From a virus (Duplodnaviria; Heunggongvirae; Uroviricota; Caudoviricetes): 33,715 bases of DNA. The translations under genes and the position numbers were made by a program. Under the pieces are notes generated by a model, which was not told the origin of the DNA, searched no databases, and was given only the letters and a program-made list of their open reading frames with translations. Below, piece by piece: positions 28,793 to 31,569 of this stretch; the stretch's first letter is position 1; every line of letters starts with the position of its first letter. The stretch is taken from the IMG/VR virus record IMGVR_UViG_2534682164_000009; one strand, 5' to 3'.

Positions 28793-31419
28793 ATGACAGT
28801 AAAAATTTCTGGCGTGCTTAAAGATGGCACAGGAAAACCAGTACAGAACTGCACCATTGTGCTGAAGGCCAGACGAACCAGCAGCACGATGGTGGTGAAC
28901 ACGGTGGCCTCTGAAAATCCGGATGAAGCCGGACGTTACAGCATGGATGTTGAGCATGGTCAGTACAGCGTCACCCTGCTGGTTGAAGGTTTTCCGCCTT
29001 CACATGCCGGGACCATTACCGTCTATGAAGGTTCCAGACCAGGTACGCTGAATGATTTTCTCGGTGCCATGACGGAGGATGATGTCCGACCGGAGGCACT
29101 GCGCCGCTTTGAGCAGATGGTGGAAGAGGTGTCACGTAACGCCTCCGCGGTTGCACAGAATACGGCAGCCGCGAAAAATCAGCCAGCGAGGCGGCAACTC
29201 ATGCAACCGATGCTGCAGCCTCAGCACGTGCCGCCAGCACGTCAGCCGGACAGGCCGCGTCGTCGGCTCAGTCAGCGTCTTCCAGCGCAGGAACGGCATC
29301 GACAAAGGCCCGTGAAGCAGCAAAAAGTGCTGCTGCAGAGTCATCAAAAAGCGCGGCAGCTACCAGCGCCAGTGCCGCGAAAACGTCAGAAACGAATGCC
29401 GCAGCATCACAAAAATCGGCAGCCACTTCTGCATCCACAGCGACCACGAAGGCGTCAGAAGCTGCCACCTCGGCACGGGGTGCGGCGGCCTCAAAAGAGG
29501 CAGCGAAATCTTCAGAAACGAATGCATCATCAAGTGCCAGTAGTGCAGCTTCCTCGGCAACGGCGGCAGGAAATTCCGCGAAGGCGGCAAAAACGTCCGA
29601 GACGAACGCTAAGTCTTCTGAAACAGCAGCGGGACAGAGCGCCTCAGCTGCGGCAGGTTCAAAAACAGCGGCTGCATTATCTGCCAGTGCCGCGTCAACA
29701 AGTGCCGGGCAGGCCTCAGCCAGTGCCACCGCCGCCGGAAAATCGGCAGAAAGCGCCGCATCATCCGCTTCAACAGCCACAACGAAGGCTGGCAAAGCCA
29801 CTGAGCAAGCCACTGCAGCAGCGAGGTCTGCTTCTGCAGCAAAAACCTCTGAAACAAATGCAAAGACTTCAGCAGACAATGCTGCTTCCTCTAAGGCAGC
29901 AGCCGCATCGTCAGCCAGTTCAGCGGCGTCATCGGCATCATCTGCGTCTGCTTCAAAAGATGAGGCGACCAGACAAGCGTCAGCAGCGAAAGGTAGTGCC
30001 ACGACAGCAACAACGAAAGCATCAGAGGCGGCAGGCAGTGCGACGGCTGCATCTCAGAGCAAAGTTGCTGCTGAATCCGCGGCAACGCGCGCCGAGACAG
30101 CAGCAAAACGGGCAGAGGATATTGCATCCGCCGTGGCGCTGGAGGATGCGAGCACGACGAAAAAGGGGATAGTACAGCTCAGCAGTGCGACCAACAGCAC
30201 TTCCGAGTCACTGGCGGCAACGCCAAAAGCGGTTAAGGCGGTAATGGGTGAAACGAACAAGAAAGCGCCCTTAAATAGTCCTGCACTGACCGGAACGCCA
30301 ACAACACCAACTGCGCGACAGGGAACGAATAATACCCAAATCGCAAGCACGGCTTTCGTTATGGCTGCGATTGCCGCCCTTGTAGATTCGTCACCTGATG
30401 CACTGAACACGCTGAACGAGCTGGCTGCGGCGCTGGGCAACGACCCGAATTTTGCGACCACCATGACTAACGCGCTTGCGGGTAAGCAACCGAAAGATGC
30501 CACCCTGACGGCGCTGGCCGGACTTACTACTGCGGCAGGCAAGTTTCCGTATTTTACGGGGAATGATGTCGCCAGCCTGGCAACCCTGACAAAAGTCGGG
30601 CGGGATATTCTTGCGAAATCGACCGTTGCTGCCGTTATCGAATACCTCGGTTTACGAGAACTCGGCACAAGCGGGGAGAAAATACCGTTACTCAGTACAG
30701 CGAATACCTGGACTAATCGACAAACATTCAGCGGTGGCCTTTCTGGTGAACTATCCGGCAATGCTTCTACAGCTGCAAAATTAAAAACTGCCAGGAAAAT
30801 AAGCAATGTGGCTTTTGATGGTTCCTCCGATATCACATTAAAAGCAAGTCATGTTGGTGCGTTTGCCTTAGGGAAAACAGGAAGCACCGTTGCGAATGAT
30901 AAAGCAGTTGGATGGAACTGGAGTAGCGGAGCCTATAACGCAACTATTAGTGGTGCATCAACGTTAATTATTCATTTTTATATGGGAGAAGGAAGTTGTC
31001 CTGCAGCTCAGTTTCGGATTAATTATAAAAATGGCGGTATTTTTTATCGTTCAGCCCGTGATGGTTATGGTTTTGAAGCCGACTGGTCCGAATTTTACAC
31101 CACCAGAAAACCTTCAGCAGGAGATGTTGGTGCACTGCCGTTATCTGGTGGTCAACTGAATGGTGCACTGGGTATCGGAACATCCAGTGCTCTTGGCGGT
31201 AATTCGATTGTATTGGGTGATAATGACACGGGCTTTAAACAAAAAGGCGATGGTAATCTGGATGTTTATGCTAATAACGTCCATGTTATGCGCTTTGTCT
31301 CCGGAAGCATTCAAAGTAATAAAACCATAAATATTACGGGACGTGTTAATCCCTCGGATTACGGTAACTTTGATTCCCGCTATGTGAGAGATGTCAGACT
31401 TGGCACACGAGTTGTTTAG
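28793..31419 (+). pseudogene. stf: side tail fibre, lambda Stf-like, with apparent -1 frameshift at A-run 29174-29178 and in-frame TAG at 31417-31419
   Basis: N-terminus MTVKISGVLKDGTGKPVQNCTIVLKA… matches lambda Stf in frame 2; the Ala/Ser-rich KTSETNAK-repeat body and C-terminus are in frame 1; reading continues in frame after the TAG to 31569. Confidence 0.85.
30635..30660. other. left crossover site of invertible segment (gix/pix-like), inside stf
   Basis: TTATCGAATACCTCGGTTTACGAGAA is an inverted, 21/26 match of the right site; shared core GTAAACCGAGGT. Confidence 0.7.
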
Positions 31420-31422
31420 ACC

Positions 31423-31569
31423 ATGAAGAAAGGCGTGATGTATGAAAAATCAGGCCATGTAATCACGGGGCTTGGTATTATCGGTGAAGTCGATGGTGAT
31501 GATCCGGCAGTATTCAGACCAATACAAAAGTTAATTAACGGAACATGGTATAACGTATCGCAGGTATAA
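31423..31569 (+). other. in-frame continuation of stf beyond the TAG (last 48 codons of the Sv tip)
   Basis: …[21 protein letters not shown] aligns with the C-terminus of the inverted Sv' cassette (…[21 protein letters not shown]). Confidence 0.6.

Follow-up and report, generated by a model that had tools for sequence, protein, structure and literature searches.

The frame change in the side tail fibre gene (stf) of the 33,715-nucleotide stretch analysed here (hereafter the window) is very probably a homopolymer under-call of a draft assembly, as we infer from comparing assembled sequences rather than from reads. By the same kind of comparison, the in-frame amber codon near the 3′ end of the gene is a genuine C-to-T nonsense mutation of a Gln codon, fixed in the Shigella sonnei copies of the prophage. 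The locus is the side-tail-fibre locus of a defective lambdoid S. sonnei prophage, read from a draft contig, and the amber-bearing fibre tip lies in an invertible segment that is a known kind of tail-fibre switch.

The window is contig ADUU01000022.1 of the draft S. sonnei 53G assembly GCA_000188795.2 (locus L035 is identical to window positions 25044-31340), and the 98-aa fragment of lom that it encodes is EFZ54043.1, which is labelled ‘Shigella sonnei 53G’. An exact-protein look-up with the downstream tfa found near-identical chromosomes, the source names of which are S. sonnei, while the relatives of the window in complete E. coli genomes are only 97.5% identical. One such relative, NZ_OZ040035.1, carries an intact 934-aa Stf with which the stf body of the window is collinear. 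The finished 53G genome (HE616528.1, locus L018) was compared over window positions 9259-30655 (21.4 kb), that is, up to a point before the TAG codon. An exact-pattern scan for the A5/A6 junction in the contigs of a one-genome-per-species set gave no match, the S. sonnei lineage being absent from that set. The parts of stf in the window are as follows.

28793..29178, + strand: 5′ part of stf in frame 2, through the A-run (translation; PF08400).
29174..29178, + strand: A5 homopolymer, where frame 2 gives way to frame 1 (all sister genomes have A6).
29176..31416, + strand: body of stf in frame 1, comprising the repeat shaft, the last part of the constant region (as far as about 30655) and that portion of the variable tip Sv which precedes the amber codon (translation; collinear with the 934-aa E. 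coli homologue; Mu S/S′ structure matches).
31417..31419, + strand: in-frame amber codon TAG, from CAG (Gln) by a C-to-T transition (comparison of S. sonnei, E. coli and viral contigs).
31420..31569, + strand: orphaned last 49 codons of the tip and the TAA stop, where gene callers list a 48-aa ORF at 31423-31569 (aligns to the C-terminal end of Mu S).

A 459-aa ORF begins in frame 2 with the ATG at 28793 and extends to 30172. In translation, the first ~128 residues of this ORF are lambda-Stf-like and are followed, after ...NTAAAK, by an Arg/Gln/Pro-rich string, while frame 1 from about 29176 encodes an Ala/Ser/Thr-rich Stf shaft that is open to the TAG at 31417-31419. The arrangement proposed in the initial annotation, with the N-terminus in frame 2, the body in frame 1 and the junction in the A5 run, is borne out by these translations. 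The same annotation had taken the 459-aa ORF for an out-of-frame read-through of a GC-rich stretch, and the composition of the region agrees: positions 29179-30172 have 59% G+C against 52% for the window, with no stop in frame 1, the terminal stop only in frame 2, and three stops in each of two antisense frames. A stop count this low in all of these frames argues that the long frame-2 ORF is a compositional read-through.

Insertion of one A into the window restores an uninterrupted 875-codon frame, the product of which matches, residue for residue, the 875-aa Stf annotated in a sister genome; a single extra A does join the two frames, as had been claimed. The PF08400 domain (prophage tail fibre N-terminal) is matched in full (profile positions 1-134 of 134, E=3.7e-69) by residues 1-134 of the protein after repair, and the match crosses the A-run junction only after the sequence has been repaired. 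The gene order is J fragments, lom, stf and tfa, which places stf where a lambda-type Stf is expected. Judged by both this domain and this position, stf here is a lambda-type side tail fibre gene. The 875-aa sister protein occurs on 72 contigs, and the 459-aa frameshift product is absent from a collection of 15 billion proteins.

The A-run reads A6 in 10/10 S. sonnei records in which this region of stf is preserved, the finished 53G genome included. Over the 21.4 kb compared with that genome there are 2 substitutions and 10 one-base gaps, with the window the shorter sequence in every gap; the gaps include A6 to A5 in stf (29174), A6 to A5 in lom (28276) and T7 to T6 in the lom-stf spacer (28773). 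Against locus L015, 12.1 kb of the window show 0 mismatches and 5 gaps, all of them A/T-run contractions in the window. When all sister loci are taken together (31.3 kb), 11 A/T runs are shorter in the window, one G is lost and one A is gained, alongside 2-3 private substitutions. The fraction of runs that are contracted rises with their true length, from 1/91 for runs of five through 4/29 for six and 5/13 for seven to 1/1 for eight, and a rate that climbs in this way points to homopolymer under-calling. Neither the independent assembly of strain 53G nor the close relatives have the frameshift, which belongs to a series of same-direction, length-dependent losses with few substitutions, which is the pattern of a homopolymer error. 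Our literature search found no sequencing platform for the 53G draft. As a property of the gene, the frameshift described in the initial annotation does not hold up, given A6 in the finished genome of the same strain and an A5 run that is one of 12 contractions in the same direction. The true sequence at 29174-29178 would be A6, and stf would read through in one frame.

It is very unlikely that the 53G stock that was sequenced had instead really lost one nucleotide at the A5 run. Such a deletion would give stf two independent inactivating lesions, as expected in a decaying prophage, and real lesions common to the sister genomes do exist (the 22-bp deletion that splits J, the loss of head genes, IS insertions and the amber codon). 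Homopolymer slippage is, moreover, a frequent mutational route, and the A5 allele of lom is also present in unrelated contigs. Against a genuine deletion stand the A6 run of the finished genome and of every S. sonnei record counted above, as well as the company that the A5 run keeps, namely 12 losses of a single base in 31 kb, alongside 2-3 substitutions and with a frequency that climbs steeply as runs get longer. Scaled to the genome, about one such loss per 2.6 kb would amount to well over a thousand private frameshifts, almost without substitutions. A mutator-strain origin of the A5 run was excluded, as indels outnumber substitutions by far too much.

The lom A5 allele was found on four short contigs that are unrelated to the window and come from other sequencing runs, which suggests that such alleles are either natural or recurring errors. 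A1 slippage in A6 runs is a real mutational pathway too, a point that counts against the artefact reading.

Alignment with intact Stf homologues, which had been proposed as a check, shows that the E. coli genes are collinear with the window, read CAG at the amber site and differ in length at the A-run. There, the nearest E. coli alleles carry 22 extra nucleotides relative to the window, made up of a 21-nt repeat unit and one A, while the S. sonnei alleles differ from the window by exactly one A. A 22-bp deletion at the junction, or slippage of the 21-nt repeat together with the loss of one A, was considered and dropped, since the near-identical S. sonnei genomes have a plain A6 run.

A programmed frame change, in which -1 ribosomal frameshifting or transcriptional slippage on the A-run yields full-length Stf from the A5 allele, is improbable in the extreme: the ...AAKKSAS... 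of the A6 allele is exactly what a -1 slip on GCG AAA AAT would produce, but the canonical X XXY YYZ heptamer is absent at the A-run, which is preceded by G, transcriptional slippage is not efficient on a run as short as five A's, and the arrangement is not conserved, all relatives being single-frame with A6. We therefore retain the homopolymer under-call as the reading of the frame change.

The closest known counterpart in a gene of this type, the frameshift of lambda PaPa, lies at the boundary of orf-401 and orf-314, unlike the frameshift in the window, which falls at codon ~128. In both cases, a change of one base divides a lambda-type stf with a PF08400 domain and a downstream tfa into two ORFs; the lambda PaPa frameshift is a real mutation of a laboratory strain, whereas the one described here would be an error of one draft assembly. 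The split stf of lambda PaPa (orf-401/orf-314) and the intact stf of Ur-lambda are described by Hendrix and Duda (1992), as cited in PMC9608196.

The amber codon behaves differently from the A-run in these comparisons. TAG is found at the 31417 position in 16/16 S. sonnei records that contain the site, a count that rests on S. sonnei records other than HE616528.1, and the truncation of the tip by an in-frame TAG at 31417-31419, as first reported, is thus borne out. Two observations had been named as contrary to the initial annotation, A6 at 29174 and a sense codon at 31417; on assembled S. sonnei sequences, the former is what was found and the latter occurs in no record. The E. coli homologues have CAG (Gln) at the amber position, as do 7/13 viral contigs with exact flanks. 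Two of these seven, L030 and L031, share 99.8% identity with the window and likewise have A6; an intact ancestral form (short allele, A6, CAG) still exists outside the S. sonnei copies.

The TAG is followed in frame by ACC and by the 48-codon ORF at 31423-31569, which makes 49 sense codons downstream and 50 lost residues when the Gln is included; the 48 codons first given as cut off correspond to the ORF and leave out the ACC. The DNA after the amber codon is 98% identical to that of homologues that read CAG at the amber site, which argues that the frame beyond it is no chance open frame. The 48-aa product of 31423-31569 is found on at least 1000 contigs. The amber codon is an ordinary feature, already visible in public annotation.

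The tip that it interrupts matches the phage Mu structures 8JU3 (S,S′) at 1e-54 and 5YVQ (S) at 5e-16. The segment FDSRYVRDVRLGT...[14 protein letters not shown] aligns to residues 424-502 of the 504 residues of Mu S, across the amber position, which comes just after RLGTRVV. By this homology to the last residues of Mu S, the tip is recognisable as a Mu S/S′-type distal fibre tip. The likeness to the phage Mu proteins S and S′ (gp49/gp51) and their assembly protein U extends to the C-terminal region of the tip and to the PF02413 Tfa gene that follows, whereas the N-terminal two-thirds of the fibre are lambda Stf here and not Mu S, and the S. sonnei copy stops about 50 residues short of the end of Mu S. 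In a study by North et al. (2019), as reported in PMC9608196, it is the binding of Mu Tfa to the distal part of the fibre that makes the fibre fold and trimerise.

The amber codon ends Stf at residue 875 of 925 and takes away the last 50 residues of this distal tip. Among the residues lost is the C-terminal motif [14 protein letters not shown], which is common to this tip, Mu S and Mu S′, and which also ends the alternative tip of the locus. A fibre truncated in this way would be unable to complete the Tfa-assisted trimeric tip, which would make stf a pseudogene in the orientation seen in the window. We infer that the 875-aa product, lacking the end of its tip, is non-functional.

The prophage itself carries further lesions. 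J is in fragments owing to a 22-bp deletion between CTGACGG repeats, which is common to all S. sonnei copies and is not found in the E. coli relatives. The lysis genes are directly followed by IS elements and then by the tail gene Z, an order which indicates that the head genes are missing. With J broken and head genes gone, the prophage is, on this gene content, defective and predicted to be unable to make particles, and the amber codon is a further lesion in a decaying prophage.

It is hardly credible that the amber codon is not inactivating, whether through read-through or suppression, or through a two-piece tip in which the 875-aa product is joined by a 48-aa product after re-initiation at the ATG 3 nt downstream. 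That ATG, at 31423, lies two codons past the TAG, but it is ancestral (…QTMKKG… in intact homologues) and no new start, and no Shine-Dalgarno sequence precedes it. The 49 codons past the amber are undamaged in all S. sonnei copies, which near-zero divergence among these copies explains. A supE-type suppressor restores Gln, and Gln is the original residue at this site. We searched the window for an amber suppressor tRNA (CUA anticodon) and found none among its three tRNAs (Met CAT, Arg TCG and Arg TCT only), which rules out a suppressor encoded by the prophage in the window. Whatever the fate of the codon, a working fibre would have no particle to serve, in a prophage with no head genes and a broken J. 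The reading kept here is that of a nonsense mutation that truncates the tip.

The amber-bearing tip is one of two alternatives. An invertible segment with an intact alternative tip surrounds the amber codon, an arrangement that the initial annotation missed. Its features are listed below.

30631..30660, no strand: left crossover site, an inverted repeat inside stf (repeat pair I2; breakpoints of flipped genomes).
31572..32105, + strand: tfa, tail fibre assembly protein paired with the amber-bearing tip (PF02413 Caudo_TAP, E=4.8e-34).
32134..32661, - strand: tfa′, alternative tail fibre assembly protein of 175 aa (PF02413, E=7.9e-37).
32663..33550, - strand: Sv′, the alternative intact tip (ORF 32663-33505), which after inversion is fused to the constant part as a 918-aa Stf (918-aa Stf of sister genomes).
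33551..33580, no strand: right crossover site, an inverted repeat (repeat pair I2; breakpoints of flipped genomes).
33631..33715, + strand: first part of a serine invertase gene of Gin/Pin type, interrupted by the contig end (translation VLIGYVRVSTNDQ..., Ser9).

The repeats of pair I2 (30631-30660 and 33551-33580) are 30 nt long and 83% complementary, and they bracket Sv and tfa on the + strand and tfa′ and Sv′ on the - strand. The left repeat lies inside stf, the invertible segment (30631-33580) measures 2.95 kb, and the inversion breakpoints of flipped sister genomes fall inside both repeats. Among the S. sonnei records, four have the orientation of the window (875 aa plus the orphan 48-aa ORF) and five are flipped, with an intact 918-aa Stf; the finished 53G genome is flipped relative to the draft contig of the same strain. 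The 918-aa Stf of the sister genomes equals the window protein for 621 aa and then continues with Sv′ sequence, and it is found on 277 contigs. Inversion thereby exchanges the tip and its tfa for the intact alternative pair and gives the 918-aa Stf.

The invertase begins VLIGYVRVS..., with Ser at position 9, and S9 is the catalytic serine of Gin (PMC3575834). In the sister genomes, only a 60-aa Resolvase fragment (PF00239) is called for the adjoining invertase, and the E. coli relatives annotate the invertase as incomplete. With bounding repeats, two opposed tip and assembly cassettes and both orientations on record, this is a Gin/Pin-type invertible tail-fibre segment, and the arrangement is the one on which Gin-family inversion operates (PMC3575834; PMC11915804). 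As in the Mu G, P1 C, e14 P and Shigella boydii B segments, which are served by Gin, Cin and Pin (Din), a constant fibre part is joined to either of two opposed tip/assembly cassettes, short inverted repeats form the bounds, a serine invertase gene adjoins the segment, and both orientations occur naturally. Unlike those segments, the one described here serves a lambda-type Stf on a siphovirus-type prophage, its adjoining invertase is cut to 60 aa in the sister genomes, and one of its tips carries a nonsense codon, such that one state of the switch gives a truncated fibre.

As the adjoining invertase is only a 60-aa fragment in the sister genomes, any current inversion of the segment would need an enzyme supplied in trans. 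The two assemblies of one strain that differ in orientation, and the fact that both states are common among isolates, raise the possibility that the switch is still flipping in S. sonnei, driven in trans, and that the amber tip makes it an on/off phase variation of the full-length 918-aa Stf. We consider this rather unlikely, though it deserves mention; if the switch still flips, this might hint at some retained use of the fibre.

In conclusion, the frame change and the amber codon are both ordinary observations that do not challenge current understanding and bear mainly on annotation hygiene. The draft contig probably contains about one homopolymer error per 2.6 kb, which would give stf, lom and probably an esterase gene the false appearance of pseudogenes, and frameshifts called from this draft record should not be taken as gene decay. 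The amber codon, by comparison of the available records, genuinely marks the copies of this prophage in S. sonnei, and the invertible tip explains why the annotated products are 875 + 48 aa in some S. sonnei genomes and 918 aa in others.

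The tail-region genes lom and J, located 5' of the side-tail-fibre gene stf, are both broken in the window. The features considered here are as follows.

Features of the window, by nucleotide position
24798-27976: J, with a 22-bp deletion at 26390 between CTGACGG direct repeats
28044-28642: lom, with an A-run at 28276-28280
7212, 7574, 9621, 11220, 12524, 12866, 14547, 24191, 24273 and 28773: sites where the window is one base shorter than all of the sister genomes
9339-9588: three-tRNA cluster (Met-CAT, Arg-TCG and Arg-TCT) within the prophage region that regulates the late genes
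924-1693: IS1-like element, 770 bp
2156-3419 and 13488-14751: IS3-family element of 1264 bp, present twice
14744-16470: IS21-like remnant
30631-33580: 2.95-kb invertible tail-fibre segment of the Mu G / e14 P type, flanked by 30-nt inverted repeats

The 22-bp deletion breaks J into ORFs of 547 and 513 aa. In contrast to the homopolymer changes, it is common to all S. sonnei copies of the prophage and is therefore real. One sister genome, CP026802.1, carries a further 17-bp deletion in J (26178-26194). In lom, contraction of the run from A6 to A5 yields ORFs of 98 and 108 aa, and the gene is unbroken in all sister genomes (199 aa). Four short contigs that come from other, unrelated sequencing projects and share only 90-97% identity with the window also have the A5 allele, so the run is a hotspot that is hit repeatedly, whether by sequencing error or by genuine slippage.

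Besides those in lom and stf, the window has ten single-base losses, nine in A/T runs and one of a G, together with one additional A at 7290/7291 relative to the sister genomes. An antiterminator-like gene holds the losses at 7212-7574, and a SASA/DUF1737 esterase gene of 617 aa appears as two ORFs (10563-11276 and 11237-12415), apparently owing to the loss at 11220.

Larger rearrangements were also observed. The second IS3-family copy and the IS21-like remnant have replaced the head-gene region of the prophage, and the sister genomes vary in IS-mediated rearrangements by which the 5' part of stf is lost. tRNA genes are seen in the late regulatory region of many lambdoid and Stx-type prophages.

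At the start of the Stf shaft (29150-29200), comparison with two homologous loci, L004 and L005, revealed a 21-nt repeat unit (ATCAGCCAGCGA...). E. coli and Shigella stf alleles carry different in-frame 21-nt deletions, so repeat slippage changes the length of the shaft. The invertible segment lies in opposite orientations in the draft and finished 53G assemblies, and either orientation is common across S. sonnei genomes, despite the adjoining invertase being truncated to only 60 aa in the sister genomes.

The central domain of Sv, the amber-bearing variable tip (30850-31135, residues ~690-780), shares ~80% protein identity with the variable region of the S/S' chimera of phage Mu in 8JU3. Mu G(-) particles, which bear the S' fibre, infect Shigella sonnei. 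On that basis, the tip disabled by the amber might belong to the kind that binds the surface of S. sonnei itself.
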